Part shown: one piece after another, positions 1,707-33,715 of the stretch
Layout of the letters: each line of letters begins with the position of its first letter
Position numbering within the stretch: the stretch's first letter is position 1
Source: a candidate division WWE3 bacterium
GTDB lineage: Bacteria; Patescibacteriota; WWE3; UBA101185; UBA10185
Direction of reading: 5' to 3'
NCBI GenBank assembly: GCA_052035175.1
Contig: JBPOHV010000001.1
Span: 523,338-587,337 of the forward strand
DNA: 64,000 bases
Notes under the pieces: generated by a model
Database searches by the model: none
Seen by the model: only the letters and a program-made list of their open reading frames with translations
What the model was told of the DNA's origin: nothing
Translations under genes and position numbers: made by a program

Positions 1707-4364
1707 GTGCCATATGTACTGATTTTATGGTCTTTGCTTTATATAGTCAACATGTATTCATTCTATTTAATTCGGCAATCTGCTACCATTTATACAATGG
1801 ACAATACTAGACAATTGAAACATCTTATTTACTGGATATCAGTGGGTTGCGCTGTAGAGCTATCTACATTGATGTTTAGGTTAGTCAAAGTCTTAAATGG
1901 TCAATTTGATTTTACGCTCAATTTAAGACTGCTTTTTACTCCTTTATTTGGTGATTATACTTTTATAGGCAGATTAATAGGTTTTTTTACAAGAATTGTA
2001 TTTATAATTTTTGGTTTGATCTTTGTTGGTGTTGTTTCTGTAGTAGCTTTATTATTACCTATAGTTTGGTATGTTTTACCGCTAATTTTAATAAAAGTAT
2101 TAGGGTTTTTGCTGACATTTTGTCTTTACGCAGTTATTTTCCTTATAAAGTACTTAAGTTTTAAAAATCTTCCAGCTAAAAGAATTTCTAAAGTTACTAA
2201 TCTAAGTTGTGCGCAAGCTTTTCGACCAGCGGCTTTGGACATATCAAATGGTATACAAGCCAATTATCTAAATGCTCTCGAAATGATGCATAAAAGTTCT
2301 CAAATTAAAGAATTGTTGTTATTGGCCGAATTGAGTATAGAAGATATCTTTTCAAAACTGAGAGATATGCATATTGATGTTGTAGATATACGATCAAAAG
2401 CTTATGCATACGCAACAAATAATAAGTCACGCTTTATCGAGTTAGAACATGTTTTTGTTTCATTGATATCTTGTATTCCAAATACAAATGTTTTTTTGTC
2501 TGTCTTTGGAATAAAGCTAGAAACTTTGGAAAATGCTGCTTCGTGGTTGGTCGACCAACGTGAACAATTGGCAAAAGTTTATATATGGCAGTCTGATTTT
2601 GAAATGCCTAGATCTGCCGGCTTTGGCCATGGAATGACCGGTAGAGTTACACATCACCTTGATGATATATCTGAAGATTTTACCCAAATGGCCAAAGCCG
2701 GCATGTTTAAACGAATTGTTGGTAGAGAAGATGAAATTAAAAAAGTAGCCGATCTTATGGGAGGCAAAAATATTAATATACTGCTTATGGGCGAACCTGG
2801 CAGCGGCAAAACTACTATAGTGAAAGGAATAGCGCATAAAATAGTATACGGTCTTGATTATGATACTTTGAAAAATAAGCGCATAGTAAGTGTAGAATTT
2901 AGCGGTTTATTATCCGGTGCAAAAACATCTGGTGATATTGCAGAAAAATTGCGTCTTGCTTTTGATGATATCCGCAAATCAAAAGATATTATTGTGTTTA
3001 TAGACGAAATTCATACTTTAGCGGCTGGCGTTTCAAATGACGGTTCCGGTGCTTCTAGTGTGTTTGCTATGCTTGAACCTTATCTTTCTGCAGGAGATAT
3101 TCAGTTTATTGGAGCTACCAATGTTTCAAATTATCGAAAGTTTATAGAGCCAAATGGTGCTTTTGCACGTCTTTTTGAAACTGTTGAAATACCACAATCA
3201 AGTTATCAAGACACAATAGATATTCTCAAAGTAAGCGCACACGAATATGCAGCTGAATTCAATATACATATTACATACCTTGCTCTAGAAAAGATTGTTT
3301 CGTTGAGCGAACGCCTCATTCATGAGCGTGTTTTACCAGATAAGGCCTTGGATATTTTGAATAGAAGTTGTGTTGAGGTTAGTAAAACTACAAAGTATCT
3401 AGATTCGAAAACTGTAGAAAGTGTTATAGCCGATTTTACGCACATCCCTGTAGATGCATTAGACGAAGACGAATCAAAAAAGCTTTTAGCTCTTGAAGAT
3501 GAAATGAAAAAAAGAGTAATTGGTCAAGACCATGCAATTACACAGATAGTGGCAGCTCTTAAAAGAGCCCGTTTGGGGATACGTGACGCGAATAAGCCAA
3601 TTGCAAGCTTTTTATTTGTAGGTACAACTGGCGTAGGTAAAACTGAAACAGCAAAAACTCTTAGTGAGACTTTCTTTGGTGGAGCTAATGCGATGATTCG
3701 CTTTGATATGAGCGAATATCAAACGCCAGATAGTATTAATAAACTAATAGGAAATTCTGATGGTAGCACTACAGGCATTTTGACCGATCAAGTAAGGTCC
3801 AAACCCTTTTCGTTAATATTATTAGATGAAATAGAAAAAGCCCATTCCGAAATACTTCTTACGTTTTTACAAGTTTTAGATGATGGTCGTATAACAGACT
3901 CAACTGGCAGAGTCATTGATTTTACAAATAGCATAATAATTGCAACCAGCAACACTGGTACTAGAGAAATCCAAACTGTCTTTGATAAAAACGGAACTTT
4001 TGATGAAATGCAAAATGCGGCCATGTCTAGTGTGAGAGAACATTTTGCTCCAGAGTTTTTAAATCGGTTCACAAGCATTATTGTATTCAACCCATTAAGT
4101 ATAGAAAATGTTAAAAAGATTGCTCTTTTGATGCTAAACAAGGTTAAGAAGTTGGCAGATGCAAAAAACATAACTTTAACTTTTTCAAATGACTTGTTAG
4201 ATGAAATTATAAAGCGCGGCTACAATCCTCAATGGGGTGCAAGACCTTTAGCTAGAGTTATCGAGGACACTGTCGAAACATATATAGCAGATAAACTGCT
4301 ACGCAACGAAATGAAACCCGGAGATGTCATCGAATTAACAGGGACAGTCCTAAAGAGTCCCTAA
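1707..4364 (+). CDS. clpC: ClpC/ClpB-family AAA+ chaperone ATPase (two NBDs, Clp_N repeats) with an unusual hydrophobic N-terminal extension
   Basis: 885 aa. Clp_N repeat. Walker A in NBD1 (GEPGSGKTT) and NBD2 (GTTGVGKTE). Sensor and ClpB_D2-small region. The first ~160 aa contain 2-3 predicted TM helices; the true start may be internal (M31). Confidence 0.8.
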   Translation: MPYVLILWSLLYIVNMYSFYLIRQSATIYTMDNTRQLKHLIYWISVGCAVELSTLMFRLVKVLNGQFDFTLNLRLLFTPLFGDYTFIGRLIGFFTRIVFIIFGLIFVGVVSVVALLLPIVWYVLPLILIKVLGFLLTFCLYAVIFLIKYLSFKNLPAKRISKVTNLSCAQAFRPAALDISNGIQANYLNALEMMHKSSQIKELLLLAELSIEDIFSKLRDMHIDVVDIRSKAYAYATNNKSRFIELEHVFVSLISCIPNTNVFLSVFGIKLETLENAASWLVDQREQLAKVYIWQSDFEMPRSAGFGHGMTGRVTHHLDDISEDFTQMAKAGMFKRIVGREDEIKKVADLMGGKNINILLMGEPGSGKTTIVKGIAHKIVYGLDYDTLKNKRIVSVEFSGLLSGAKTSGDIAEKLRLAFDDIRKSKDIIVFIDEIHTLAAGVSNDGSGASSVFAMLEPYLSAGDIQFIGATNVSNYRKFIEPNGAFARLFETVEIPQSSYQDTIDILKVSAHEYAAEFNIHITYLALEKIVSLSERLIHERVLPDKALDILNRSCVEVSKTTKYLDSKTVESVIADFTHIPVDALDEDESKKLLALEDEMKKRVIGQDHAITQIVAALKRARLGIRDANKPIASFLFVGTTGVGKTETAKTLSETFFGGANAMIRFDMSEYQTPDSINKLIGNSDGSTTGILTDQVRSKPFSLILLDEIEKAHSEILLTFLQVLDDGRITDSTGRVIDFTNSIIIATSNTGTREIQTVFDKNGTFDEMQNAAMSSVREHFAPEFLNRFTSIIVFNPLSIENVKKIALLMLNKVKKLADAKNITLTFSNDLLDEIIKRGYNPQWGARPLARVIEDTVETYIADKLLRNEMKPGDVIELTGTVLKSP

Positions 4365-4545
4365 CCCAACGCTTTTCCTTTAGTAGAAGGACTTCGTTTT
4401 GTTGTATTACCAAACTATGTACCTGAGGACACTTGTTTGCACTTGGTTTAGTTTATTCTAAAAGCTTTTTTCGAAGGACAGTCCTCAAATTCCAACATTT
4501 TCATGGATAACCATTGTACCTAGAGGGTCCGTTTAGGACTGTCCC
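4341..4545. repeat. Repeat family A copies at the clpC–dinB junction (4341-4362, 4476-4484, 4525-4545)
   Basis: GGGACAGTCCTAAAGAGTCCC overlaps the clpC stop. AAGGACAGTCCTCAAA. GGGTCCGTTTAGGACTGTCCC. The core GGAC(A/T)GTCC is palindromic. Confidence 0.6.
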
Positions 4546-4556
4546 TTTATACCTTC

Positions 4557-4826
4557 GTGTTTTCTTCGGTGTATAATGAGCACATGTACACCAATCTGAA
4601 TGATGCAGTAGATGTAATATGCTCAGGTGCAAAGTTAACCCCGATTGGAATAATTTGGAAAACTCAAAAGTACAAAATCACAAAAATAGGTTATCACCAT
4701 ACATTTACAAATGGAAACACCTTGTATCACACATTTTCTGTTGTTTCTAACAAAATATTTTTCAAATTAGTATTTAATAGCAAAACACTTATCTGGACGT
4801 TGGAAAGTACTTATGAAGAACTTTAA
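4557..4826 (+). CDS. Hypothetical small protein (doubtful)
   Basis: 89-aa ORF immediately after the repeat-A copy at 4525-4545. No recognisable motifs. It may be non-coding leader sequence. Confidence 0.15.
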   Translation: MFSSVYNEHMYTNLNDAVDVICSGAKLTPIGIIWKTQKYKITKIGYHHTFTNGNTLYHTFSVVSNKIFFKLVFNSKTLIWTLESTYEEL

Positions 4827-6039
4827 TCAGGCAATTCCAAGAAAAATGCATATCGATATAAATTCGTGTTTTGCTACGATCGAGCAACAAGCAAATCCTC
4901 TTTTACGAGATCGGCCTATAGCAGTAGCTGCAAGAAATTACTCTTACGGTACAATTGTAGCTTCTTCTTATGAAGCTAAAAAACTTGGTATTAAAGTAGG
5001 TACAAAAGTTAACGAAGCCAAAAAGCTTTGCCCTAAAATAGTAATAGTCGAACCAGATCCTGCTAAATACCGTGATGTACATATAAAAATCAAAGCTTTA
5101 TTAGGTAGGTATACTGATAAAGTAATTCCAAAGTCTATTGACGAATTTGTTTTAGACTTTTCTCATAAATCATTTGATAAGCTTGATCTTTTTGAAATTG
5201 GTAAGCAAGTAAAAGCTGATATACGGGCAAAAGTAGGCGAATATATTAGTGTATCTATCGGTATTGGGACAAATAGGTTCTTGGCAAAGACAGCGTCAAA
5301 TCTTAAAAAGCCTGATGGATTAGAATTTATCGACCATACAAATGCTACAAGTGTATATCAAAAACTGTCACTTATTGATTTACACGGGATAAACAAAGGA
5401 TTTGCTTCACGTTTGGCTGGAATAGGTATATTTAATGCATACGACTTTTTGTTGGCAAGTCCACAAGCTTTGAACTCAGCTTTCAGGTCTATAAATTCTT
5501 ATCAATGGTATTTGCGCTTACGCGGATGGGAAACCGACGAATCAGATTATTCTAGAAAAAGTTTTAGTAATTCTTATGTTTTACCAAAATCAACTAAAGA
5601 TATTACTGAGATATCTGCAATATTGATGAAGTTAGTTTTCAACACAACTCAACGACTGCGCGCTCATAAATTTAGAGCAAAAGGTATCCATTTGGGAATT
5701 TTGTTTGGAGATAAGTCTTATTGGCATAAAGGTACTATTTTGACATCCGATTTATCTGACACTAGTGCTCTGTATAAAGTGTTTTTTAGATTAATGTACG
5801 CATGCCCTGATATACATACAAAACCAGTCAAACAGATTTCTGAGGCATGTTTTTATCTAACACCGGCGAGCACATTACAATTGGAGTTGTTTCAAAATAA
5901 ACCAAAGCAAGAAAATATTACAAAAGCTATGGATAGTATAAATAATACTTGGGGAGATTTTACACTTGTACCTGCGAGAATGGTACATACCAAAGATCAC
6001 GCCAAAGATACTATCGCATTTGGTAACGTACGAGCATAA
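4813..6039 (+). CDS. dinB: Y-family DNA polymerase IV (DinB)
   Basis: 408 aa. N-terminus RKMHIDINSCFATIEQ...RDRPIAVA matches the DinB/UmuC catalytic core (HVDMDCFFA...PV-V). Confidence 0.85.
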   Translation: MKNFNQAIPRKMHIDINSCFATIEQQANPLLRDRPIAVAARNYSYGTIVASSYEAKKLGIKVGTKVNEAKKLCPKIVIVEPDPAKYRDVHIKIKALLGRYTDKVIPKSIDEFVLDFSHKSFDKLDLFEIGKQVKADIRAKVGEYISVSIGIGTNRFLAKTASNLKKPDGLEFIDHTNATSVYQKLSLIDLHGINKGFASRLAGIGIFNAYDFLLASPQALNSAFRSINSYQWYLRLRGWETDESDYSRKSFSNSYVLPKSTKDITEISAILMKLVFNTTQRLRAHKFRAKGIHLGILFGDKSYWHKGTILTSDLSDTSALYKVFFRLMYACPDIHTKPVKQISEACFYLTPASTLQLELFQNKPKQENITKAMDSINNTWGDFTLVPARMVHTKDHAKDTIAFGNVRA

Positions 6040-6563
6040 GCTACTAAGTCTTTGCAAAAATACATTCCGTGGACGCCTGGTTCTCGTTCGTCTTCGATAG
6101 TTTTATAAAGAGTAAAATCAAACTTTTGCCAAAGTCTCAAAGACGCTGCATTAGTCGACCATGTCGTAAGACTTACTTTTTCAGAGTTTTGTTCAACCAA
6201 TTCTGTCAAAACTTCATTTACTAATCTTGTACCTACACCTTTACGCCATGTATTTGGAGATACCATTATGCAAACAAAGTAAGCTCCGTCAAAAGGTTCG
6301 AAATAGCCAAAACCAGCCGCGAAACCAATAATTGAGTTATCGTCTGGATCAACCGCTACAAAAGCAAATGGCAATTTGGGTTCAAAAGCTTTACCATACT
6401 TTTTCTGTATATAATCTGGGTTGTTACCGGTAGCGTAGTTGTAATAACCTTCCAATGAGGTACGCGAGTCTAATGGAGGGACAAAATAATTGCCAACGTC
6501 TTGAAACAATTTTATGATGCCTTCTTTATCTTGATCAACTATTTTTCTAACAAGCATAAGCAC
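5997..6563 (-). CDS. GNAT family N-acetyltransferase
   Basis: 188 aa. Acetyl-CoA binding motif RKGVGTRLV and a GNAT-like beta-alpha core. Convergent 43-bp overlap with the dinB end. Confidence 0.55.
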   Translation of the reverse strand: MLMLVRKIVDQDKEGIIKLFQDVGNYFVPPLDSRTSLEGYYNYATGNNPDYIQKKYGKAFEPKLPFAFVAVDPDDNSIIGFAAGFGYFEPFDGAYFVCIMVSPNTWRKGVGTRLVNEVLTELVEQNSEKVSLTTWSTNAASLRLWQKFDFTLYKTIEDEREPGVHGMYFCKDLVAYARTLPNAIVSLA

Positions 6564-6628
6564 CTTTATACATAATATTTTCTGTAAGTTCCATATTTCT
6601 TTCCTCCAAATATTATAGTATACTATTC

Positions 6629-7282
6629 GTGTTATCTACAGAGGCAGTGGAAACAATGAAACAGACAGAAACATATATTAAAACCGCATATTTCGTGGCA
6701 TCAGTACAAGGAAAAGAAAATTGGGATTCCCAGTATCAATTAATTGCAAATATTCTAGCCAAACTAAAGTGTGATGTGAGCACTACAATGCTCGAACTTA
6801 CCCAAAAAGATATCGAAAAAATGAATGATGAGCAGTTCAAATCGCATTTACTAGATAGTCAAAGGTATATCAAAGATAATGACATATTTATTGCAGAAGT
6901 TAGCAGCTCAAGTTCTCATGTGGGTTATGAAGTAGGCTATGCAGTAGCACACGCAAAACCAGTTTTGCTCTTGAGACACGATACTGCATCTCATCACACA
7001 GCACCAGCTTTCAGAGGTAATCCATCAAAACTGGTGACTCTTTCTATGTACAATGAAAAAAATCTAGAAAGCAAAATCAAAGCATTTTTGCGAAAAGCAG
7101 AAAAAGGTATTTTTGTAAAAAGACTTCCAATCGAATTCACTCAAGGACAAGTCGAATACGTGCAATATCGTCAAGGTATTGGTGCACGTAAATCTTTTAA
7201 CGCTACAATAAGACAACTCATCGAAGAAGCCATGGCCAAAGACAAAGTTTATAAAGACTTCAGAACTCTAGAAGAAGAGTAA
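6629..7282 (+). CDS. Nucleoside 2-deoxyribosyltransferase-like protein
   Basis: 217 aa. Motif SSSHVGYEVGYAVAHAKPVLLL resembles the NDT/Rcl-family G-x-x-x-E-x-G-x-A nucleophile region. A start at M10 is possible. Confidence 0.4.
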   Translation: MLSTEAVETMKQTETYIKTAYFVASVQGKENWDSQYQLIANILAKLKCDVSTTMLELTQKDIEKMNDEQFKSHLLDSQRYIKDNDIFIAEVSSSSSHVGYEVGYAVAHAKPVLLLRHDTASHHTAPAFRGNPSKLVTLSMYNEKNLESKIKAFLRKAEKGIFVKRLPIEFTQGQVEYVQYRQGIGARKSFNATIRQLIEEAMAKDKVYKDFRTLEEE

Positions 7283-7312
7283 TCCTTTTTTACATTTGAA
7301 TGCATTAGCTTA

Positions 7313-7358
7313 GTTCTCGCAGCGCAGGATGATATGCAGCCGTCCAAGCGAGAAAACT
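7313..7358. repeat. Hairpin with conserved 20-nt loop motif AGGATGATATGCAGCCGTCC (copy 1)
   Basis: Stem ttctcgc/gcgagaa flanks the 20-mer at 7326-7345. An identical 20-mer occurs at 9846-9865. Sits between convergent genes. Confidence 0.6.
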
Positions 7359-7384
7359 TAGATAATGCAGAACACAACATGAAT

Positions 7385-8149
7385 CTATAATTTAGTTAAT
7401 ATTTCATAACCTTCTTTAGTCACCAAAACAGTATGTTCAACTTGAACAAAATCAGATTTATCTAAAGTTTCTGTTTCCCAATAACCCTTGTGCTTGAGCC
7501 TATAACTACCTTCAGTAATCAAGGGTTCTATACATACAGTCATACCTGTGTGAAGTGTTGGACCTTGCTTTATATTGCCATAACAAGGAATAGTAGGGTC
7601 CTCATGCATTTCTTTGCCAATACCATGCCCTGCATAATCGCGTAAGACTCCATAACCCGCTGACTCTGCGATAGTTTGCATAGTATTTGAAAGTAATCCA
7701 ACTTTGACACCATCTTTGATTTCAGAAATAGTCGACATTAGAGCTTGCTCAGCAACTTGTATCAATTTCTTCCGTTTTGCAGAAATCTCACCAATAGGAA
7801 CCACAATTGCGCTATCTAAATAAAAACCTTTGTAATTTATAACTGTATCCAATTTCAAGATATCTCCAGATTTCAGTTTTATTTTTTTTGTGGGGAAATT
7901 GTGTAATGCTTGATTATTGACGCCTACACATAATCCAGCAGGGTATGGAGGATAACCATAAGGAGCATAACCTTTACATGCGGGCTTTACTCCAAAGTCT
8001 TTGCACAAATTCAAAAACATCACCTCTAAATCCCAAGTGGTTAGTCCAACTTCAGCCTTTTGGCTTAAGATCTGATATATTTGTGCTAGTATTTTGCCCC
8101 CCAAGCGCATTTCTGCGATTTCGGTAGGTGTTTTGATTAGTGAGGTCAT
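7385..8149 (-). CDS. map: Type I methionine aminopeptidase
   Basis: 254 aa. Pita-bread fold motifs including GHGIG, EPL and a metal-binding D/D/H/E/E pattern (FVQVEHTVLVT). Confidence 0.85.
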   Translation of the reverse strand: MTSLIKTPTEIAEMRLGGKILAQIYQILSQKAEVGLTTWDLEVMFLNLCKDFGVKPACKGYAPYGYPPYPAGLCVGVNNQALHNFPTKKIKLKSGDILKLDTVINYKGFYLDSAIVVPIGEISAKRKKLIQVAEQALMSTISEIKDGVKVGLLSNTMQTIAESAGYGVLRDYAGHGIGKEMHEDPTIPCYGNIKQGPTLHTGMTVCIEPLITEGSYRLKHKGYWETETLDKSDFVQVEHTVLVTKEGYEILTKL

Positions 8150-8176
8150 TTAGATATATAGTAACATTTAGTTGAA

Positions 8177-8737
8177 ATGATTGATAAATCTCAATTAACC
8201 AAGGTTAGTACTGGTACGTATGCTAATGTTTTTGTAAACAGTACACTTACGTACATCTTAAAAGAATATAGCTTAAACATAGATGTGAATAGCACTATGA
8301 AATTACTTGAAGACTACCTTTTGGCAAAAAATTTATTTAATCGACTTAACAGCAGTGCTTTTCAGATACCGCAAACTTATAATTTCTGTATTAAGTCAAA
8401 CCCTGTTGCTACAACACTATCACTTATAGAAGATTACTGTGGTACCAACATAAGAACTCTGTATAAGCAAAACCAGCTGAAATATCAAGAAAAAACTGAA
8501 AATATAAAAAAACTGATTATGCAATTGCCGGAGAATATGCCGATTGAAACTCACCCTGGAAATATCTGTGTTTTTAGGGATTCATACTACATAGTAGATT
8601 TTTTTCCCCCTTTCCCACACTTTGGTTTTTATGCTTTTGAAAATAGCTTTTATGAAGAGGCAAGACTCCTAAGAAAACTTTCACGATATTACAATAATAA
8701 CTTGCGGGTACAGAAGTTTGAATTCTATCTAAACTAA
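8177..8737 (+). CDS. Hypothetical protein
   Basis: 186-aa ORF with no recognisable motifs. Confidence 0.3.
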   Translation: MIDKSQLTKVSTGTYANVFVNSTLTYILKEYSLNIDVNSTMKLLEDYLLAKNLFNRLNSSAFQIPQTYNFCIKSNPVATTLSLIEDYCGTNIRTLYKQNQLKYQEKTENIKKLIMQLPENMPIETHPGNICVFRDSYYIVDFFPPFPHFGFYAFENSFYEEARLLRKLSRYYNNNLRVQKFEFYLN

Positions 8738-8804
8738 TTCCTATAGCCTTTATATGACTGTTCTTATACATTTAGACTTTTTAGTATTAATCTTTAACCT
8801 GCTA

Positions 8805-8895
8805 GGTTCGTTTAGGTCTGTCCCTTTTAACCTATGTAAAAGTACGCTATTTGCAGTCAACTAAATAAAAACAAAGGACAGTCCCTATCTAAACC
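8805..8895. repeat. Repeat family A pair (GGTTCGTTTAGGTCTGTCCC ... GGACAGTCCCTATCTAAACC), inverted orientation
   Basis: Copies at 8805-8824 and 8876-8895 in the 5' region of the SLT-like gene. Related to the copies at 4341, 4476, 4525, 12371 and 12431. Confidence 0.6.
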
Positions 8896-8904
8896 TGTAT
8901 AATT

Positions 8905-9627
8905 TTGCTAATGCAACTGTCTGTCGATGAACTCAAAAAACAAAAAGAACAGCTTATACACACACTTCAAACAAACTACCCAGAAGTATGCGCGTGGTTG
9001 GTAGATAATAAGTACGATCTCAATGATTTCAAAAAGCACACTATGTCATTGGCGGCTGCATTTGTTATAGCAGCTGGTGTAACTTCTACTTATCAAGTAA
9101 AAGAGTTTGGTGAATTACGCAAAGCTCAAGCGACAGTTTATAACGATAAGAAACTGAAAGAAGAACATATCGATAATCTCAAAGCCGAATATACTAGTGC
9201 TGAGGATCTTAAAGCTATAAATGTAATCGAAAACTATGGCGACTATATAAATGCCACTGCACAAAAATATGAACTAGACCCCAAAGTTATATTTGCTACT
9301 ATCATGGTCGAGTCGATGGGAAATCCCAAAGCGATACGCTATGAACCACAAATCAATGATGCAAGCTATGGATTAGGGCAAATACTTTATTCAACTGCCA
9401 AATATATCGGGTTTCAAGGCAGTACAGATCAGCTCTATGACCCTCAAACTAACATTGATCTTATTGGTAAATACCACAAAAGAACTTTGGATACTTATGG
9501 ACACGATTTATCAGATGAAAGCTTGGCAATTGCATATAATTCAGGAAATCCTTATGGTAAAGCAATTCCTGGTCATGTACAAAAATTTGATAAATGGCTA
9601 CAAAAAGCCGAGGAGTATAAATTATGA
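8905..9627 (+). CDS. Lytic transglycosylase (SLT domain) protein
   Basis: 240 aa. SLT catalytic motif (MVESMGNP, E in an ES motif) and SYGLGQIL (the GLMQ-like motif). Confidence 0.65.
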   Translation: MLMQLSVDELKKQKEQLIHTLQTNYPEVCAWLVDNKYDLNDFKKHTMSLAAAFVIAAGVTSTYQVKEFGELRKAQATVYNDKKLKEEHIDNLKAEYTSAEDLKAINVIENYGDYINATAQKYELDPKVIFATIMVESMGNPKAIRYEPQINDASYGLGQILYSTAKYIGFQGSTDQLYDPQTNIDLIGKYHKRTLDTYGHDLSDESLAIAYNSGNPYGKAIPGHVQKFDKWLQKAEEYKL

Positions 9628-9819
9628 TAGAAACTATAAATCCTGAAGTAATAACAACTCCTGCAGAAGCGTATAACGAAGTAATTGGGCTTGAAAGTTT
9701 ATTGGGATTATTAAATACTGCAAAAGCTCAAAAAGTGCCTACGAATCAAATGATTCAAATGGTCCAAGATATAATTAGTTAGCTTTGCAGAGATCTTAAT
9801 TTTTGCAGCGCATGTTAGA

Positions 9820-9893
9820 GCGATGCTAAGTGTTTTTTTGAGGTAAGGATGATATGCAGCCGTCCTTGCCGAAAAAAAATGCTTAGCGTCGCT
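9820..9893. repeat. Hairpin with conserved 20-nt loop motif AGGATGATATGCAGCCGTCC (copy 2)
   Basis: Long imperfect stem gcgatgctaagtgttttttt/aaaaaaaatgcttagcgtcgc encloses the 20-mer at 9846-9865. Sits between the convergent SLT and leuS genes. Confidence 0.6.
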
Positions 9894-9900
9894 TATGAAG

Positions 9901-12345
9901 TTATGCAACAATATTTATAATCTTACCTTTGACATAGATAAAGTTTACGATAGATTTACCATCCAAATGCTTTTGTACATTTACAGAATTTAAAGCAAGC
10001 TCTTTTATATCAGCTTCGTTTATGTTTGCATCTACTTCTATTTGGTCGCGACGTTTACCATTGATTTGAATTGGGATAATTAATTTTTCTACAGAAAACA
10101 AAGACGCGTCTACTTTTGGCCAAGATTGTAAATGTACGCTGTTTTCTTTTTTCCATTCACCAAATTTATTTGCATCTTGCCACAAGTCTTCGGCTAAGAA
10201 AGGCATAAATGGCGCAAAGATTTTTATAAATGATTTCCAAACTTCTAAAGGAATAACAGCTTCTTTTTTCAAAATATTTGTAAATTTCATAACTTCGCTT
10301 ACAGCGGTGTTCATTTTTAACCCTTCAAGCATTGGAGTTATTGCTTGAACTGTTTTATTAAAAGCGACAGATAAATGTTGCACTTGTTGGTCTTTGACTT
10401 TGTCTTTTAACTCATACAAAGATCTTGCTAGTTTGAAACACGCGTGCAAACTGCGTTCATTCCAAGGATAAGTTTCTTCGTATGGGCCTAAAAATGCAAA
10501 ACAAATACGTATTGCATCTGCACCATAATTTTCAATTACATATTCTGGATTAACTGTATACTCAGGGCGAGATTTGGACATTTTTTTATGGTCAGCACCC
10601 AAAAGCATACCTCCGCTCATTCTCCAATTAATAGGCTCTGATACAGGAATATGCCCCATATCGTGCAAAGCTTTCACCCAAAATCTAGTATAAATTAAAT
10701 GAGCAGTTGTGTGCCCAGCGTCTCCAAAATATTTATCAACAGGTAACCAATATTTCAATTTTTCTTTATCTGCAAAAGCGTTATCATTTTTGGGGTCGAT
10801 ATACCTTATGTAATACCAATTTGACCCAGCCCAAGTTGGCATCGTTTCAGTTTCTAATTTTGCGGGATTGCCTTGAGAATCTACTGTTGTATTCCATTGT
10901 GTATTTCTCGCCAAAGGGCTCACGCCTTTATCGTCTGGCAAAAAGTCTTGCATAACTGGAAGTTCTAAAGGTAATTTATCTTCTGGAAGAGCTTCTATTT
11001 CACCATTTTGTTTATGTACCAATGGAATAGGTTCACCCCAATATCTTTGGCGTGAAAATATTTGGTCTCTTATTTTATAATTAGTCTTGCGATAGCCCCA
11101 GCCTTTTTCTTCAAAATAGTCTGCAATTTTTGTTGTCGCTACGTGAATATCCATTCCATTCAAAAAATCTGAATTTACCATGGTGCCTTCAGCTTCTTGG
11201 ACTTGATCTGCATTAATTATCTCTGAAGTATCACCATCGCTAGCAACCGCAACACGCTTAATAGGTAAATCAAAAGCTTTTGCAAAAGCAAAGTCTCGTT
11301 TATCGTGGCCGGGTACTCCCATAACTGCACCTGTGCCAAATTGATTTAATACAAAATCAGAAATCCAAATTGGCAACTTTTCATTGTTTAATCTATTCAA
11401 AACATAAAAACCTGTAAACACACCTGTTTTAACTTTACCTTCGGAGAGTCTTTCTAATTCAGATTTATTTGCTGCTTGTTTAATGTACGCTTGGACTTCG
11501 GGCAATTCTGATTTTTGAGCAAATGAGTGCTCGGGTGCCAAAACTACAAAAGTAGCGCCAAAGCTAGTATCTGGCCTAGTTGTAAAACATTCAATTATTT
11601 CAGAAGTTTCAGAACCATCTTCATTTAATACTGGGTATTTGATTACTACACCTACAGATTTACCTATCCAATTGATTTGGCCCAATTTAACCGAATCCAT
11701 GTAATCAACTTGAGATAAACCTTCCAAAAGCTTTTCAGCATAGGCCGGTATATTCAAAACCCATTGTTTAAACATTTTTTTGACTACAGGATGGCTATCT
11801 CTTTCAGAAACTTTTGATCCGTCTTCTTTTGTCAAAACCTCTTCATCAGCCAAAACACCCAAAGCTTCGCACCACCATACAGGCATTTCTTTTTGATAAG
11901 CCAAGCCTTTTTCCCAAAGTTTTATAAACATCCACTGAGTCCATTTGTAATAAGAAGGGTCACATGTATTTACTTCACGACTCCAATCTATTGCATAACC
12001 CATTTTTTGCATTGCAGATTTATAATCTACAGTGGCTTTGGCAATAGCTTCTTGAGGAGTAATGTGCTCTTTTATGGCAAAAGTTTCTGCGGGCAAACCA
12101 AAGCAATCCCACCCCATAGGAAATAATACATTGTAACCTTGCATTCTCAAAAACCTCGAGTAAATCTCTGGGACCGTATATCTCATCATATGGCCAGCGT
12201 GCAGATATTTACCAGAAGGGTAGGGGAGTTCAGCCAAAATGTACTTCTTGGGTTTTTCAGAAAAATCTACTGCTTCATAGATATTGTCTTTATACCAATT
12301 GTCGCGCCATTTATCTTCGATGTTTTTATGATTGTAATCTCCCAT
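9901..12345 (-). CDS. leuS: Leucyl-tRNA synthetase
   Basis: Class I aaRS with a HIGH-type motif (HAGHMM) and KMSKS. Large CP1 editing region. The ORF extends to 12402, but MGDYNHKNIEDKW (start ~12345) matches the usual LeuRS N-terminus, and the repeat-A copy at 12371-12391 then falls in the 5'UTR. Confidence 0.9.
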   Translation of the reverse strand: MGDYNHKNIEDKWRDNWYKDNIYEAVDFSEKPKKYILAELPYPSGKYLHAGHMMRYTVPEIYSRFLRMQGYNVLFPMGWDCFGLPAETFAIKEHITPQEAIAKATVDYKSAMQKMGYAIDWSREVNTCDPSYYKWTQWMFIKLWEKGLAYQKEMPVWWCEALGVLADEEVLTKEDGSKVSERDSHPVVKKMFKQWVLNIPAYAEKLLEGLSQVDYMDSVKLGQINWIGKSVGVVIKYPVLNEDGSETSEIIECFTTRPDTSFGATFVVLAPEHSFAQKSELPEVQAYIKQAANKSELERLSEGKVKTGVFTGFYVLNRLNNEKLPIWISDFVLNQFGTGAVMGVPGHDKRDFAFAKAFDLPIKRVAVASDGDTSEIINADQVQEAEGTMVNSDFLNGMDIHVATTKIADYFEEKGWGYRKTNYKIRDQIFSRQRYWGEPIPLVHKQNGEIEALPEDKLPLELPVMQDFLPDDKGVSPLARNTQWNTTVDSQGNPAKLETETMPTWAGSNWYYIRYIDPKNDNAFADKEKLKYWLPVDKYFGDAGHTTAHLIYTRFWVKALHDMGHIPVSEPINWRMSGGMLLGADHKKMSKSRPEYTVNPEYVIENYGADAIRICFAFLGPYEETYPWNERSLHACFKLARSLYELKDKVKDQQVQHLSVAFNKTVQAITPMLEGLKMNTAVSEVMKFTNILKKEAVIPLEVWKSFIKIFAPFMPFLAEDLWQDANKFGEWKKENSVHLQSWPKVDASLFSVEKLIIPIQINGKRRDQIEVDANINEADIKELALNSVNVQKHLDGKSIVNFIYVKGKIINIVA

Positions 12346-12370
12346 AGAATGAACATATTTTAGCATACAA

Positions 12371-12451
12371 GGGACTGTCCTAAACGGACCCTCCACGTAC
12401 AAGGTTTGAACATAAAAAGTTGTACTTTAAGGTCTGTCCTAAACTGTCCCC
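12371..12451. repeat. Repeat family A pair (GGGACTGTCCTAAACGGACCC / GGTCTGTCCTAAACTGTCCCC), direct orientation
   Basis: Copies at 12371-12391 and 12431-12451 upstream of leuS. Confidence 0.6.
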
Positions 12452-12734
12452 TTGACCTCATAGGCTGTAATATCGTATAGTACGGAGCGTGGCTAAGAAA
12501 AAAGGTAATCGCATCTTAATAGGAATGAAATGCACCGAAACAGGTGTAGTGACCTATTTGACTAGAAAAAATCGTATGAATACCCAAGATAAACTTACAC
12601 TCAAGAAGTTTAATCCAAAACTTAGACGCCATGTCCTTTATAAAGAAGTCACAAAGCTTAAATAATTAGCTCCTTTTTCATCAGTACTACCAAAGATTTT
12701 ACTAGTTTGAATTTTTATATGCTAATATTTATGC

Positions 12735-13640
12735 ATGAATTATTCAAACACAAACACCGTACAAAGCTTTATTCGTGGTTTAGCATGGTTTTTAACATTG
12801 GCATTGCTAATGCTATTTTTTGGTGTGCCTGCAGCTTCACTTTCGCAAGCAGCTACAGGAACATCCTCAACCTTTTTAATACCTGTTTTTGTCTTTAGTG
12901 TTTGGGTTGCGTCAATAGTTTCTAAAATGTTTTTTATACTTCCAGAATGGGAACGTATAGTTATTTTACGTTTGGGAAAATTTGATGGAGTCAAAGGACC
13001 AGGCTATTTTGTAATACCTCCATTTGTTTATTCTGTAGCAGCTATAGTAGACACACGTATAGAAACTCACCAGGTAGAGGCTACTGCAACTTTGACAAAA
13101 GATAACGTCCCAACAAAAGTTACAGCCGCTGTTGAATTTAAATTAGAAGATCCACGAAAAGCTATTGTTGATGTTCAAAATTACCGCCAATCAGTAATAT
13201 GGCTTTCTACTGAAGCGCTCAAAAATACAATAGGTAGCTTGGATCTAAAAGATTTATTAAGCGAAAGAGATCAAATTGCAAAATCTTTACAAACACAAAT
13301 AGATGAAGGTGCTGCAGTTTATGGCATTGACGTTCGAGCCGTACGTATTACCGACATTGACACACCAGCATCATTGATTGAAGAATTAGCAGTAATCGCA
13401 AGAGCGCGCCGAGGAGCAGAAGCCAAACAAATTCAGGCAAATGCAGAAATTTTAGTTGCAGAAAAAATTGCTCAGGCAGGAAGTATATTGGCAAACTCCC
13501 CAGCAGGTATTAAACTAAGAGAGTTACAACTTTTGGCTGAAATTAGCAAAGAACAAGGATCAACCATTGTAGTTTATCCATATCAAGATGCAAACGGTAG
13601 AGAAATTGCACATTCTGCTATAAATAGAATTAAAAGTTAA
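12735..13640 (+). CDS. SPFH/band-7 (stomatin/prohibitin-like) membrane protein
   Basis: 301 aa. N-terminal TM segment. SPFH core (VDTRIETHQVEATATLTKDNV...VEFKLEDPRKA). Coiled-coil C-terminus. Confidence 0.7.
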   Translation: MNYSNTNTVQSFIRGLAWFLTLALLMLFFGVPAASLSQAATGTSSTFLIPVFVFSVWVASIVSKMFFILPEWERIVILRLGKFDGVKGPGYFVIPPFVYSVAAIVDTRIETHQVEATATLTKDNVPTKVTAAVEFKLEDPRKAIVDVQNYRQSVIWLSTEALKNTIGSLDLKDLLSERDQIAKSLQTQIDEGAAVYGIDVRAVRITDIDTPASLIEELAVIARARRGAEAKQIQANAEILVAEKIAQAGSILANSPAGIKLRELQLLAEISKEQGSTIVVYPYQDANGREIAHSAINRIKS

Positions 13641-14449: not shown

Positions 14450-14461
14450 CCTATAGATCAT

Positions 14462-14484
14462 AGGACCTGGTCTGACCAGGTCTC
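14462..14484. repeat. Repeat family B palindrome AGGACCTGGTCTGACCAGGTCTC
   Basis: Perfect 9-bp arms gacctggtc/gaccaggtc. A near-identical copy lies at 31509-31531. Half-sites occur at 14860-14869, 23191-23209 and 23316-23325. Confidence 0.6.
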
Positions 14485-19586: not shown

Positions 19587-19603
19587 ATTATACAGGATCT
19601 GTC

Positions 19604-19720
19604 CTTTCTAAGATATGTACCCGCTATATGATAATAAAAAGTAATGGTACATCAAAATCACCGATACGCCTTTTTTCCCTCAACTATGCGGGTACATATC
19701 TAGATGAGGACAGACCTCGA
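19604..19720. repeat. Long imperfect inverted repeat (~28-bp arms, ~60-bp spacer) in a divergent promoter region
   Basis: The arm atctgtcctttctaagatatgtacccgc (19604-19631) pairs with gcgggtacatatctagatgaggacagac (19692-19719), about 24 of 28 positions matching. Confidence 0.5.
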
Positions 19721-19743
19721 CAACGTATGGTACGATATACGCG

Positions 19744-23926: not shown

Positions 23927-24001
23927 GGGGGTGTAGCTCAGTGGTAGAGCAGCGGCCTCTTAAGCCGCGTGTCGAGGGTCCGATCCCCTCCACCCTCACC
24001 A
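23927..24001 (+). tRNA. tRNA-Lys (anticodon CTT), CCA encoded; its 3' end serves as an integration site
   Basis: Acceptor gggggtg/caccctc (one G·U pair). D-arm gctcagtggtagagc. Anticodon stem gcggc/gccgc with loop ctcttaa. T-arm gaggg-tccgatc-ccctc. A -10 tataat lies at 23907-23912. Confidence 0.85.
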
Positions 24002-24018
24002 TTTAAACAAATTATTCC
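23982..24018 (+). repeat. Direct repeat DR-L (attL-like): tRNA-Lys 3' end plus 17-nt flank
   Basis: The 37-mer gatcccctccaccctcaccatttaaacaaattattcc recurs at 29658-29694 with 35 of 37 identical. Its first 20 nt also recur at 24130-24149. Confidence 0.7.
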
Positions 24019-24039
24019 GTTGTTACAATTTTATAGATG

Positions 24040-25446
24040 TTAAGTTATAGGTAAGGGATCGGATGCCGGACCCCGCTTAGCGGGGGAGGCGGGATCGACG
24101 GGCGAGCTAGCAAGCGAGAACCGGTGATCGATCCCCTCCACCCTCACCAATAGATGAGATGCGTTGTCCACGCCACCCTGCTTAAAGCGGAACAGCGTGC
24201 TTAAAGTTGGTGTTTTAAATCCCGGATATTGATAATAGAGGTTTTCAGGAAAAATAATCTTTTGTAGTTCTGTTTTTCTTTCGAACGACAGCTTTTCCCA
24301 CAGAGTTCTAGGATTTTGGTACAACCGAGAAATCTCATACTCAAATTTCGCATTTTCAAACTTTAAATTTTCGTTTTTATTTAATTTTAGATATTTACCC
24401 TTCGTGAGAAACAAAAGCGCGTTTACGGAGCTCCTAAGCGGTCTGATTTCATCTAGTAGTGACTTAAACTCAGACTCAAGAACATCTTTATGAACAGTTT
24501 TTCCTTTAGTTATGGGGTAATAGTATGGATAATGTTTTGTCTTGCCCTTGCACCAGGAACCAGTGAAGCTAGTATTAGATATTGCACACTTAACTAAAAC
24601 TCTTAATGGAAAGTCATCTTTTCTATAACTTTTGGGTTTACCAAGGGGTTTCGATGCCGCAAGTTTTTGTAATTTATCCCACTCATGGTCAGTAAACATA
24701 GCATCATGTTTTCCTTCGTAGATGTTTTCAGTCTTCTTAAATTTAATTACACCCTTGTAAAAGGGATTTCTAATAAACTTACCTACAAAATTGGAGCCTA
24801 CTTTTTTCCCACTTTTGGTTTTTATGCCACTTTCATTTAAATGTTTAGCAATTTCTTGAAAAGAGTAACTGCCTGTCAAATATAGATGGCCAGCATCCTT
24901 TAGTATCGAAAAATTTGGTTCATCTCTTATCGGCACCCTATGATCTTGACCTATATGCTCTAATCTATATCCAATTGGAGGCACGCTTACCGGATAACCT
25001 GCTTGAACGCGCTTTTTTATACCGTCACGGGCCCGCTCAGCTCTAATTGCATTATCTAGTTTGGCTTGGGCAGCAATTAACGTTTCAATAAACTCCCCCA
25101 TAGGTGTATTATCCGTAAACTCTGTAGCTGACTTAATAACTACGCCATAATCTTGTAATCGTCGTTTTATGTCTAAATAATCAATTGTGTTGCGTGATAG
25201 CCGATCTAGTCTGTACACAATCAAGTGTGTTATTTTACCTTTAGATTTTCTGCAGTACTCCAGTAGTCTTATAAGTTCTGGGCGTTCCGCAGTTGCTGCC
25301 GATTTTCCTTCATCTCGAAATATTTCAATAATTTCAAGCTCCTGTAATGCACTGTAGTTACGACAGTAATCTTCCTGATTTGATAACGAAAAATTATTTA
25401 CTTGTTCTTCACTGCTTACTCGGAGATAAGCTATAGCTTTTTTCAT
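24040..25446 (-). CDS. Large serine recombinase (resolvase/invertase catalytic domain + recombinase domain)
   Basis: 468 aa. Catalytic serine motif (AIAYLRVSSEEQ). DEGKSA, LIVYRLDRLSRN and the dimerisation helix are present. The C-terminal ~35 aa are Pro/Ser/Ala-rich and are encoded by a GC-rich segment that contains the extra att-core copy at 24130-24149. Confidence 0.8.
   Translation of the reverse strand: MKKAIAYLRVSSEEQVNNFSLSNQEDYCRNYSALQELEIIEIFRDEGKSAATAERPELIRLLEYCRKSKGKITHLIVYRLDRLSRNTIDYLDIKRRLQDYGVVIKSATEFTDNTPMGEFIETLIAAQAKLDNAIRAERARDGIKKRVQAGYPVSVPPIGYRLEHIGQDHRVPIRDEPNFSILKDAGHLYLTGSYSFQEIAKHLNESGIKTKSGKKVGSNFVGKFIRNPFYKGVIKFKKTENIYEGKHDAMFTDHEWDKLQKLAASKPLGKPKSYRKDDFPLRVLVKCAISNTSFTGSWCKGKTKHYPYYYPITKGKTVHKDVLESEFKSLLDEIRPLRSSVNALLFLTKGKYLKLNKNENLKFENAKFEYEISRLYQNPRTLWEKLSFERKTELQKIIFPENLYYQYPGFKTPTLSTLFRFKQGGVDNASHLLVRVEGIDHRFSLASSPVDPASPAKRGPASDPLPIT
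24130..24149 (+). repeat. Third copy of the 20-nt tRNA-Lys 3' end (gatcccctccaccctcacca) inside the recombinase C-terminal coding region
   Basis: Exact 20-nt match to 23982-24001. It is not part of a foldable tRNA. Confidence 0.6.
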
Positions 25447-25902
25447 AAAAACAGCCGCACTGGTAGTTGTAAACAGAACCTAAGGCACTGTTAACCAATG
25501 CGGCCATTTTAATACCCTAGACTTAACTGCTTACAACTTAATCAATTATAAACTAAGGGACTTGACACTCAAACTTCCTAACATGCTAGTATATGGCAGC
25601 TCAATTTGAGCTCGATGGCCCTACCTACACAGGGTGGCTTTAGCCAAGGGTGTAGGCCGACCGTAGCGAACGAAACGACCGACGGGTGAAAACGGGTCAG
25701 TTTATCTGACTATATGCTCTTAGGTTTTACACTTAAGAGATGAGAAACCTCAGACGAAATACTCAAAAGTTCTTAAAAGTTATTTTTTGACGAGCTTGCG
25801 AGTCGTCTAGGAGATATCCTGAGGGAGTGAGGGAAGCGAAGGGAGGACCCCCGGAGTTGTGCGTATAGGGGCGAAGGGGGTTTGGGGGATGTCGTGACAT
25901 CG
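25447..25902. other. GC-rich 455-bp non-coding region between the recombinase gene and a cargo gene; candidate structured RNA or att/regulatory region
   Basis: No ORF. Nested hairpins (cctacac...gtgtagg at 25621-25653; gacga...tcgtc at ~25790-25808). Purine-rich block GAGGGAGTGAGGGAAGCGAAGGGAGGACCCCCGGAG at 25821-25855. Confidence 0.35.
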
Positions 25903-26277
25903 TTAACTTTGATACACACCAGTTATTTTATTTAGCTCCTGGATATATTTAAGTCTAGTTAAATAGTCAGGCAATTTAACTCCACCAATAATTTGGTACG
26001 CGTATAAACCCTCGGTAACCACCTCCATGTATTTTTCCAATACATCTGATACTACCAATGCCTCAGATAAAGCTTTTCTGAAATTAAGCCTATTTAAGTT
26101 TTGTGAAGAAATAACTGCTGCGGATTTACGGTTTTTCACATTGTAAAAACGTTCAGTAGAACTGACAGGATCAAAAGGTTTCCCATCTTTCACCCTGTTT
26201 GCAATATCTTTAATTACAAGCTGTTGTTTTATACTGAGACCAAATGGATTGCTAATATTTCTAGTTACTCTAGGCAT
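25903..26277 (-). CDS. Hypothetical protein (element cargo); weak resemblance to a terminase-small-subunit-type HTH
   Basis: 124-aa ORF. The N-terminal segment LSIKQQLVIKDI is HTH-like. This is weak evidence. Confidence 0.35.
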   Translation of the reverse strand: MPRVTRNISNPFGLSIKQQLVIKDIANRVKDGKPFDPVSSTERFYNVKNRKSAAVISSQNLNRLNFRKALSEALVVSDVLEKYMEVVTEGLYAYQIIGGVKLPDYLTRLKYIQELNKITGVYQS

Positions 26278-26336
26278 TTATATATTATACAATCTAGTTT
26301 TTTACTAAAATGCCACAAAAGAGGTAATATGTTCCT

Positions 26337-27485
26337 ATGTTGGACACAAATAACTATAGAAAATCTGACAAATGGTTAAGGCTAAGGTTATTAAATAGTA
26401 ACCTTGTAAGCCTTACGACTAACACCGATATTGAGGCAGAGTACTGGGGAGTTATCGAGTATATATCTGAAATAGAAGAGGCAGGAGTTAACTTCTTAAT
26501 TAGTAGAGGATACAATCGCAAAGATGCTAAACAGAACTATAAAGTTTTAAACTCCTACGTAAGACAAGCAAAAAATTATTACCTTACCGCGAAGAGCTTG
26601 CAGTACAGGTCAGCCCCTTTGATGTACTATTACTCCTTTCTTAATCTAGCAAAAGCATTTCTGTTAGTTAACGACATACACTATAAAGAAGTAAAGATTA
26701 AACACGGTCTCATTTATAAATACCCCGGAAAGCGCGATATCAATAAACAAAATGTGATTTCCGCAGACTCAGCCAATGAAGTCTTTCCTAGACTATATAA
26801 ATTATGGTTCGGACAACCACTAGAGTTGAAATCGTTTAGTATCCTTACTTTACTGGGCTACTGTAGCGAGATAGCATACCAGTATGAAAAGGCGAAACTT
26901 GGAAATAGAAGAGTAGATCCAGCACTATATGTAGGCGTTTCAGACTCAAAATTAAAAACTTCTTGGGCATTGTTGGGCTTGTCTAACTTTGATGAACTAA
27001 AAAAGTATAAAAAGACTACTAAAACACTAACTAGTAATTTCTCTATAGTGTCGCCCCCTCAACATGTACTCAGAGAAATGTTTGATATGAATGCTTGGGA
27101 ACTAGCAAACTTTACTTTCTTGCAGTCCAATAAAACTCTCCCATGGTTATCCGATAATGTACCGGCACCTACAAATACACAAGTCTTTGGTGCTCTTAAA
27201 AATTTATATCAGGTAAACTATTTTTCGGGAAACTTCGACTTTTTCACAAGATTACCTTATCAACCTAACAATCAAAAGGATATGGATGAGAGCATGGCAA
27301 CCTATATAATATTATTTTTCTTATCAAATCTAGTTAGATACTGGCCTTCAGTTTTGGAGTCATATTTGCTGGCTAGGGATACATGGTTAATTGAAGGCTT
27401 TATACGGTCATGCCCACATACATTACTACGAGCATTTATTTCGAGGATTGTAAATGAGGATGTGGTAATAACTTCAAAAGACTAA
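26337..27485 (+). CDS. Hypothetical protein (element cargo)
   Basis: 382-aa ORF with no confidently recognisable domain. Confidence 0.45.
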   Translation: MLDTNNYRKSDKWLRLRLLNSNLVSLTTNTDIEAEYWGVIEYISEIEEAGVNFLISRGYNRKDAKQNYKVLNSYVRQAKNYYLTAKSLQYRSAPLMYYYSFLNLAKAFLLVNDIHYKEVKIKHGLIYKYPGKRDINKQNVISADSANEVFPRLYKLWFGQPLELKSFSILTLLGYCSEIAYQYEKAKLGNRRVDPALYVGVSDSKLKTSWALLGLSNFDELKKYKKTTKTLTSNFSIVSPPQHVLREMFDMNAWELANFTFLQSNKTLPWLSDNVPAPTNTQVFGALKNLYQVNYFSGNFDFFTRLPYQPNNQKDMDESMATYIILFFLSNLVRYWPSVLESYLLARDTWLIEGFIRSCPHTLLRAFISRIVNEDVVITSKD

Positions 27486-27491
27486 AAGGGA

Positions 27492-28526: not shown

Positions 28527-28688
28527 AAAGCTATTTTACCACTATAGCCTCGAAAATGAGCGATTTTAAAAAATATTGTAAATTTAGGAGTGCGGTTTTA
28601 GCCAGTTGTATTTCTTGTAGGGACAAGTACACACATGCCCCCCTATAGTTAGTTATAGAAGGAGAAACCAACGTTATATAATAGATTT

Positions 28689-29558: not shown

Positions 29559-29624
29559 CTTACTTGTACTAATATCCAACCACTAAATTATGAGTTCAAG
29601 GATCATTTCTGATAGCAGGTCTAG

Positions 29625-31508: not shown

Positions 31509-31531
31509 AGGACCTGGTCAGACCAGGTCTC
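31509..31531. repeat. Repeat family B palindrome AGGACCTGGTCAGACCAGGTCTC
   Basis: Near-identical to 14462-14484. Lies between tRNA-Leu(GAG) and tRNA-Gly together with further processing-type hairpins (cgcgagag...ctctcgc). Confidence 0.6.
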
Positions 31532-33692: not shown

Positions 33693-33715
33693 ATTTATAT
33701 TCTACATTAACAAAA

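Follow-up and report, generated by a model that had tools for sequence, protein, structure and literature searches.

A family of short dispersed repeats, called family A here, lies in a 64,000-nucleotide (nt) stretch of the genome of a candidate division WWE3 bacterium (GenBank assembly GCA_052035175.1, contig JBPOHV010000001.1, positions 523,338 to 587,337), which is referred to below as the window. Judged from sequence comparison, these repeats are probably, at about 60%, a lineage-specific family resembling miniature inverted-repeat transposable elements (MITEs): small, non-coding and non-autonomous insertions with a palindromic 9-bp target duplication. Each insert is flanked by two direct copies of the palindrome GGACWGTCC, the core, and at two loci a close relative has one core and no insert.

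The window and its flanks, L001 (2.6 kb) and L101 (9.2 kb), make up the ~76 kb that were examined of a 925-kb genome (~8%). The Logan assembly of SRR34217543 is identical to the genome of the window. The host is a Patescibacteria/WWE3-like organism whose best LeuS relatives are just 64-67% identical (GTDB genomes; 5.8 billion proteins), and the G+C content of the window is 35.5%. Cluster look-ups revealed a congeneric relative, GCA_020047435.1, with 81-93% nucleotide identity; two of its contigs were compared, L102 for the clpC/orf80 locus and L103 for the leuS/rpmG locus. Seven more distant WWE3-like relatives were also compared (L002, L004, L005, L008, L018, L049 and L077).

The repeat is real and far above chance. 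A search of the window with the 21-mer GGGACAGTCCTAAACGGACCC gave four matches at up to three mismatches, where chance would give none; the core was observed 5 times against 0.08 expected, and its relaxed form GGWCWGWCC 10 times against 0.47, a pattern that in 1.47 Mb of other loci is about as frequent as chance predicts. All seven copies that the original prediction had listed are present, and a position matrix recovers them with nothing further above noise in the 64 kb; those at 4476, 8876 and 12431 resemble the 21-mer chiefly in the core. Two weaker core-like sites (AGGACAGAYC) occur at 19599 (-) and 19708 (+), and no further copy was found in the remaining ~56 kb of readable genome, both flanks included. 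Random scatter, extending into coding regions, had been named beforehand as the observation that would speak against a meaningful motif; what is seen is that all ten relaxed sites are non-coding or sit within the last codons of a gene, in a window whose non-coding share is ~11-15%.

Some elements of the first description need adjustment. The copies had been placed in three intergenic regions, which holds for all save copy 1 (4341-4361), since this encodes the last eight codons of clpC. The core is indeed palindromic (five cores), and the pairs, announced as 50-70 bp apart, have centres 59-61 bp apart: 60 bp for 4480/4540, 61 bp for 8819/8880 and 59 bp for 12376/12435. The motif itself stands as a site, whereas its length of ~21 nt does not, because the homology spans the whole core-to-core stretch at three loci. 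As for the pairs called inverted at 4.5 and 8.8 kb and direct at 12.4 kb, these labels track only the TAAAC flank. The pairs c2-c3 (4.5 kb) and c6-c7 (12.4 kb) are the two ends of one unit type in opposite genomic orientation, and at 8.8 kb the true partner of the unit B head is a degenerate core at 8755-8763, not the core at 8876.

What, then, is the repeated unit? The 21-mer can be dissected into a G, the 9-bp palindromic core and an 11-nt terminal repeat (TAAACGGACCC or TAAAGAGTCCC), and it belongs to one of three homologous units of ~70-85 nt, each built as core, 50-51-nt body and core (Table 1). Positions 4498-4547 and 12369-12418 are 82% complementary over 50 nt. When only the inter-core bodies are aligned, the scores are 26 for A-C (shuffles: -8.3±3.8), 13 for B-C (-6.4±3.7) and 8 for A-B (-6.5±3.6), with n=5000 shuffles in each case; 0 to 1 of these reach the observed values (0/5000 for B against C, 1/5000 for B against A). 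An nhmmer profile of the three units, run over the ~76 kb, returned only units A, B and C (E 1e-24 to 1e-18) and a solo end at 4336-4361 (E 0.07). No open reading frame (ORF) was found by six-frame translation in the units or in the 185-nt composite described next.

The insert between clpC and orf80 is composite, 125 nt + core + 51 nt, or 185 nt in all. Just inside its cores are imperfect inverted termini, TAAAGAGTCCC (4351-4361) and TAAACGGACCC (4525-4535, -), which agree at 8/11 positions; in the 50-nt units the similarity of the ends is limited to about GTCCTWAA. Solo ends accompany the full units. The spacer from the head of unit B (8823) to the core at 8876 lacks homology with the unit body, so that this core, c5, is a solo copy, and TAAACTGTCCCC, which follows c7, is an older solo end because it is already present in the close relative. 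Taken with the two orientations, the solo ends (c1, c5 and TAAACTGTCCCC) and the degenerate copy, unit B, are traits of decaying repeats. The core-like GGACAGATC at 19599 is possibly a distant member of the family, or else a target-like site. The divergent dgkA/hlyD spacer in which it lies (19587-19743) has a 30-nt inverted duplication, GCGGGTACATATCT.AGA..GGACAGAYC, whose arms stand one before each promoter; the shorter orthologous spacers of the relatives lack this duplication.

The clearest evidence comes from the two loci that could be compared with the close relative. At clpC/orf80, positions 1-1110 of L102 correspond to 3242-4351 of the window and positions 1101-1472 to 4536-4907, leaving a 194-nt indel with a core shared at its ends; the ten bases 1101-1110 of L102 align to both window cores (4342-4351 and c3). 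In the relative this site reads ...AACAGGGACAATCCTTTTATAGCTTCGTCTTTTCTTCGGTGTATAAT... and holds one core; the window here has c1, 185 nt and c3. At leuS/rpmG, positions 161-741 of L103 correspond to 12391-11811 and positions 1-173 to 12610-12438, which gives a 59-nt indel bounded by GGWCTGTCCTAAAC; the relative again has one core (CAAGGGACAGACCTAAACTGTCCCCTTGACC), in place of the c6, 50-nt body and c7 of the window. These differences touch one gene end as well as spacers. The C-terminal tail of ClpC is ...GTVLKSP* in the window and ...GTILL* in the close relative, and the distance from the clpC stop to the orf80 ATG is 219 nt in the former and 31 nt in the latter. For the leuS-rpmG spacer, L002 and L008 have ~45 nt, the close relative 84 nt and the window 143 nt, a gradation that weakly suggests stepwise insertion.

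In the seven distant relatives the gene order is kept (hlyD-dgkA, dsbA, rpmG-leuS, SLT, orf80-dinB-MAP), and the motif is absent from their orthologous spacers. The positional conservation that had been proposed as a check is thus missing in these seven, and in the close relative it is reduced to a single core at both loci. Locus B offers no comparison with the close relative: the gene on its upstream side is an orphan, and for SLT no orthologue there exceeds 49% identity. This upstream gene, a 186-aa ORF at 8177-8737, has no homologue but itself in 5.8 billion proteins; it shows, by eye, a kinase-like HPGN...D motif, and it is either an orphan or a fast-evolving gene. Wider searches point the same way. 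An exact 20-mer had no match in JGI metagenomes; the paired-core pattern gave four unrelated matches (among them a 140-nt palindrome in an organism of 48% GC and a 30-nt tandem repeat); the 15 singleton matches in a viral collection are consistent with chance; and BLAST against plasmids and phages gave no family A copy. Family A is lineage-specific.

Table 1. Coordinates of family A features and of the TTCGNNTTTTNTTCG motif (window positions unless a contig is named)
Feature	Position	Strand	Remarks
21-mer GGGACAGTCCTAAACGGACCC match	4341-4361	+	3 mismatches
21-mer GGGACAGTCCTAAACGGACCC match	4525-4545	-	0 mismatches (perfect copy)
21-mer GGGACAGTCCTAAACGGACCC match	8804-8824	-	3 mismatches
21-mer GGGACAGTCCTAAACGGACCC match	12371-12391	+	1 mismatch
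Unit A	4476-4544	-	core-to-core alignment
Unit B	8755-8823	-	core-to-core alignment; more diverged
Unit C	12372-12439	+	core-to-core alignment
Core c1 GGACAGTCC	4342-4350		left copy of duplicated core, clpC/orf80; inside last clpC codons; single GGACAATCC in L102
Terminal repeat TAAAGAGTCCC	4351-4361	+	outer end of 185-nt insert; 8/11 inverted match to TAAACGGACCC; absent from L102
c1-c2 segment, 125 nt	4351-4475		unique in 76 kb (blastn-short self-search); absent from L102
Core c2 GGACAGTCC	4476-4484		tail core of unit A
Body of unit A, 51 nt	4485-4535	-	opens with TAAACGGACCC (- strand, 4525-4535); nhmmer E=1.5e-24
Core c3 GGACTGTCC	4536-4544		head core of unit A; right copy of duplicated core
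Degenerate tail core of unit B, TGACTGTTC on +	8755-8763		A/B/C alignment
Body of unit B, 51 nt	8764-8814	-	diverged more than A and C; nhmmer E=1.1e-18
Head core of unit B GGTCTGTCC	8815-8823		21-mer here 8804-8824 (-)
Solo core c5 GGACAGTCC, then CTATCTAAACC	8876-8884		at -35 position of SLT promoter (AGGACA-17-TATAAT)
Core c6 GGACTGTCC	12372-12380		head core of unit C
Body of unit C, 50 nt	12381-12430	+	homologous to A and B bodies; absent from L103
Core c7 GGTCTGTCC	12431-12439		tail core of unit C; L103 has one core for c6+c7
Terminal-repeat-like TAAACTGTCCCC	12440-12451	+	after c7; also beside single core in close relative
Core-like GGACAGATC	19599-19607	-	within 30-nt inverted duplication, dgkA/hlyD spacer
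Core-like GGACAGACC	19708-19716	+	other arm of duplication; at -35 position of hlyD promoter
TTCGNNTTTTNTTCG matches	window 4554-4568; L004 13326-13340; L018 4047-4061; L049 7057-7071; L077 1428-1442		just upstream of orf80-dinB

How might such units have spread? A transposase or recombinase, its gene lying elsewhere in the 925-kb genome, would recognise the symmetric 9-bp site, and the element would insert with duplication of that site. Alternatively, the enzyme might recombine at the core, and the same pattern would result if the close relative had lost its inserts by slippage between the flanking cores. A partial precedent exists: Halling and Kleckner are said to have described, in 1982, a symmetric 9-bp hotspot, NGCTNAGCN, as the target of Tn10/IS10, with a 9-bp duplication. 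The target choice of Tn10/IS10 may serve as a mechanistic parallel, by analogy only. The likeness lies in a two-fold symmetric 9-bp sequence that flanks the insert as a direct repeat; in contrast to IS10/Tn10 (IS4 family), family A has neither an IS4-type transposase nor IS10-like ends among the features found, and its specificity is apparently far stricter. The mobilising enzyme, the direction of the events and any regulatory effect are what we infer from these patterns.

Compared with bacterial MITEs, such as Correia/NEMIS of Neisseria, RUP of Streptococcus pneumoniae and ERIC/IRU, family A has much in common. Its members are small and non-coding, and homologous copies are dispersed over three loci as three units and several solo ends. 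Like those elements they are intergenic and promoter-proximal, lie in either orientation between direct repeats, differ in presence or absence between close relatives, and can change gene ends and add promoter-like hexamers. A flanking duplication together with an empty site is seen at two loci; there the cores differ by 1 nt, and a deletion would look alike. The differences are also plain. Family A is much smaller (50-51-nt body; 185 nt for the composite), its inverted repeats are short and imperfect (8/11), its flank is always the same 9-bp palindrome instead of a variable or TA target, and it has no known parent insertion sequence and about five clustered loci.

Several points weigh against a MITE-like origin. 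Pfam scans of the ORFs in the ~76 kb revealed no transposase, RAYT or dedicated recombinase gene; the sole recombinase is a serine integrase (24040-25446) that is part of a tRNA-Lys island. The terminal inverted repeats are weak, as described. A fresh target duplication yields identical copies, and here each pair of flanking cores has a mismatch, at the centre or at position 3 (GGACAGTCC/GGACTGTCC and GGACTGTCC/GGTCTGTCC). All five loci crowd into 4.3-19.7 kb and the other ~56 kb has none, a clustering that one would not expect of free transposition. The distance of 61 bp between c5 and the unit B head, across a non-homologous spacer, possibly hints at cooperative protein binding. The comparison with the close relative covers two loci, a small sample in a genome visible to ~8%. 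Finally, insertion here and precise deletion between the cores in the close relative fit the data equally well; with either polarity, units come and go as discrete cassettes. Alternatives to insertion pure and simple are a cassette mechanism acting at the core and a secondary role for the core in binding protein (three cores near -31; the spacing of c5).

The tRNA-Lys island that holds the serine integrase is a probable integrated element (23927-29694). The 38-nt 3' end of the tRNA-Lys gene (23981-24018) is repeated at 29657-29694 with 95% identity, and the large serine recombinase (24040-25446, -) adjoins the tRNA and is followed by YaaC-like and DUF5677 genes.

If a cassette mechanism is at work, the core could be an att- or attC-like site at which a site-specific recombination system makes its crossovers, and the 50-125-nt segments would be the cassettes exchanged. 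Much in the arrangement suits this idea: arrays of the form core-segment-core-segment-core, as at 4342-4544 and 8755-8884, so that at two loci three cores part two unrelated segments; indels bounded exactly by a shared core; half-sites and centres of the core shuffled between copies (GGAC or GGTC halves, A or T at the centre), as if inverted or exchanged; and the lack of strong terminal inverted repeats. Yet the segments carry no genes, no integrase adjoins the arrays, and the one recombinase of the window belongs to the tRNA-Lys island. Known tyrosine-recombinase core sites have a 6-8 bp overlap, which a 9-bp site with a 1-bp centre does not match. On balance such a system is distinctly unlikely to be the explanation.

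A bolder version of the same thought is that GGWCWGWCC would be the recognition and crossover site of an undescribed site-specific system in a bacterium of the Candidate Phyla Radiation (CPR), a system that moves non-coding cassettes of 50-125 nt between intergenic regions and builds core-segment-core arrays with no need for classical terminal inverted repeats or an adjacent integrase; the palindromes of another repeat, family B, would then be its unoccupied sites. We hold this to be rather unlikely. Family B is a perfect palindrome of 21-23 bp, AGGACCTGGTCWGACCAGGTCT, followed by YATGAT, and it occurs at 14457-14482, at 31511-31536 and at 19731 of L101, the last of these ~7.8 kb past the end of the window. 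Its centre, GGTCWGACC, is of the same GGWCWGWCC class as the core of family A, and one copy stands after a tRNA-Leu gene and before a tRNA-Gly promoter. A third clustered intergenic repeat, AGTTCGCAACTTCATTCACGATAGACCACCA, is found at 33712-33747, 34551-34586, 35420-35455 and 35999-36034, and four or five unrelated genes (not paralogues by BLASTP) have it in their promoter regions. This locus includes a 112-nt pair with 96% identity (34548-34659 / 35417-35528), and the Logan contig over the right-hand end of the window begins near one of the AGTTCGCAACTTCATTCACGATAGACCACCA copies.

The original prediction had also considered a repetitive extragenic palindrome (REP)-like element, and of its suggestions this one came closest to the evidence, given the 70-85-nt homology, the two orientations, the solo ends and the two presence/absence differences; what it lacks is a REP-type hairpin and a visible RAYT. 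Could the units then be REP doublets and owe their spread to a RAYT (Y1 transposase), as in a REP/REPIN-type family? Like REP/BIME and REPIN-RAYT sequences, the short extragenic copies come as singles, pairs and clusters at gene ends and are lineage-specific. A small head hairpin, GTCC-TAAAC-GGAC, can be drawn, and a long hairpin can form when one core of a unit pairs with the other, with minimum free energy z-scores of -2.3 to -3.0 for A and C. This pairing is trivial, however, because each core is self-complementary, while a single copy, with 4-bp arms and a 1-nt centre, cannot fold into a REP-type hairpin and unit B folds no better than shuffles (z = -0.4 and +1.4). Nor do the Pfam scans of ORFs in the ~76 kb contain a RAYT/Y1 gene, and there is no GTAG-type 5' tetranucleotide. 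Moreover, Y1-type insertion gives no target duplication, whereas the core is duplicated here. A REP/REPIN origin is very unlikely.

Turning from mobility to regulation, the promoters of this genome have to be described first. In ~29 of 71 ORFs a TATAAT-like hexamer stands 4-9 nt (mostly 6) before the start codon; TG is frequent at -15/-14, and neither a -35 consensus nor Shine-Dalgarno spacing is seen. Examples of such -10 hexamers are those at 4572-4586, 8898-8913, 12476-12491, 26277, 33980 and 62084. As the hexamers are so close to the start codons, the mRNAs appear to be mostly leaderless, and repeats upstream of them consequently cannot be elements of a 5' untranslated region (UTR).

The first interpretation offered for the motif was an operator shared by a regulon. 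In its fullest form, the palindromes would be operators of a dimeric DNA-binding regulator, bound cooperatively in ~60-bp pairs by looping or as a dimer of dimers; the targets would be orf80-dinB, SLT, leuS, rpmG, dgkA and the hlyD/macB pump, and the homology of the spacers would come from a regulatory module having been copied and pasted. Symmetric sites near promoters and pairs at ~60 bp are what family A shares with palindromic operators that act by looping. The extended site TTTAGGAC-W-GTCCTAAA has good two-fold symmetry, every site lies close to a promoter in this genome with its leaderless genes, and some cores appear to occupy the -35 position of neighbouring promoters, three being centred near -31/-32 (SLT, leuS and hlyD). 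The solo c5 keeps its 61 bp from the head of unit B despite the non-homologous spacer, and the close relative has kept one core at each of the two loci.

Against this, the centres of the cores lie at about -20, -26/-31, -31, -32, -44, -54, -92, -104 and -113 from the leaderless starts, and the neighbouring genes (orf80-dinB, SLT, leuS, rpmG, dgkA and a hlyD/macB-type pump) share no common function. The motif is missing from the orthologous promoters of the syntenic relatives, the inter-core spacers are homologous, which operators do not need, and one copy lies within the coding end of clpC. At this last site the core of the close relative is ordinary coding sequence and an imperfect palindrome, GGACAATCC. 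No regulator gene adjoins any copy. With such variable positions, no theme among the genes and relatives devoid of the motif, a regulon is poorly supported, and an operator function as the origin of family A is unlikely. The core was also considered as a general promoter element or -35 box and rejected: 30 aligned leaderless promoters show no -35 consensus, and the distance from core to -10 varies.

The vicinity of dinB had further suggested a damage or stress box, that is, an SOS or heat-shock site of the LexA, CtsR or HrcA type. Adjacency is the only argument in its favour, the copies lying between clpC and orf80-dinB, and the data already contradict it. Copy 1 precedes the clpC stop (4362-4364), which places the 4.5-kb cluster 3' of clpC and 5' of orf80-dinB; the 5' region of clpC holds no copy, just a loose 9-nt partial match, GTTTGGGAC, at 1670-1678. 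The dinB operon has instead its own cross-genus motif, TTCGNNTTTTNTTCG, abutting the -10, and the close relative retains this motif and the promoter while lacking the insert. Family A as a damage or heat-shock box is thus almost certainly wrong. The CtsR heptad repeat, CIRCE and the Cheo box were compared by eye with family A, from established consensus sequences, and do not match.

The dinB motif deserves a few words of its own. In the window, CTTCGTGTTTTCTTCGG (4554-4568) sits between c3 and the -10 of orf80-dinB. L004, L018, L049 and L077 each have exactly one exact match to TTCGNNTTTTNTTCG, in every case immediately upstream of orf80-dinB, and among the 101 loci there is no other save the window's own copy in L001. 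A copy with one mismatch (39930-39944) precedes the gene at 39977 for an IrrE/ImmA-like M78 peptidase. This direct-repeat motif, and not family A, is a candidate SOS-type damage operator of the lineage; the candidate operator sequence is TTCGTGTTTTCTTCGG. The 80-aa product of orf80 (4584-4826) has no Pfam match, and its gene overlaps the start of dinB and is kept as the upstream partner of dinB in L004, L018, L049, L077 and L102. It is apparently an accessory factor, so far uncharacterised, of the Y-family polymerase.

Three other candidates were tried and rejected. A structured RNA or small RNA finds no counterpart in Rfam, where only tRNAs exceed the gathering thresholds and nothing appears at E<=5 in 4200-12800; the folds are not shared (A and C differ), and leaderless mRNAs leave no 5' UTR. 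A CRISPR mini-array is excluded because the 'spacers' of different loci are homologous and the Pfam scans contain no cas genes; the repeats are also in mixed orientation. As for parS or centromere sites, no canonical parS was found in the sequence examined, its Pfam scans gave no origin markers, and GC skew was uninformative.

One observation stands apart from the repeats: two genes of the class A-type beta-lactamase family (PF13354) lie within 10 kb of each other, at 42587-43513 and 51767-52801.

What do these small insertions mean for their host? CPR/Patescibacteria genomes are small and usually thought to be poor in mobile DNA, and family A, read as a MITE-like family, would represent very small insertions with a strict palindromic target. 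Between congeneric species it has remodelled promoter regions and one protein C-terminus. It also recommends caution in the prediction of regulons, as the 'boxes' shared by genes in such genomes can be the ends of elements. The 9-bp specificity of the mobilising enzyme could itself be of interest, if that enzyme is found in the 925-kb genome.

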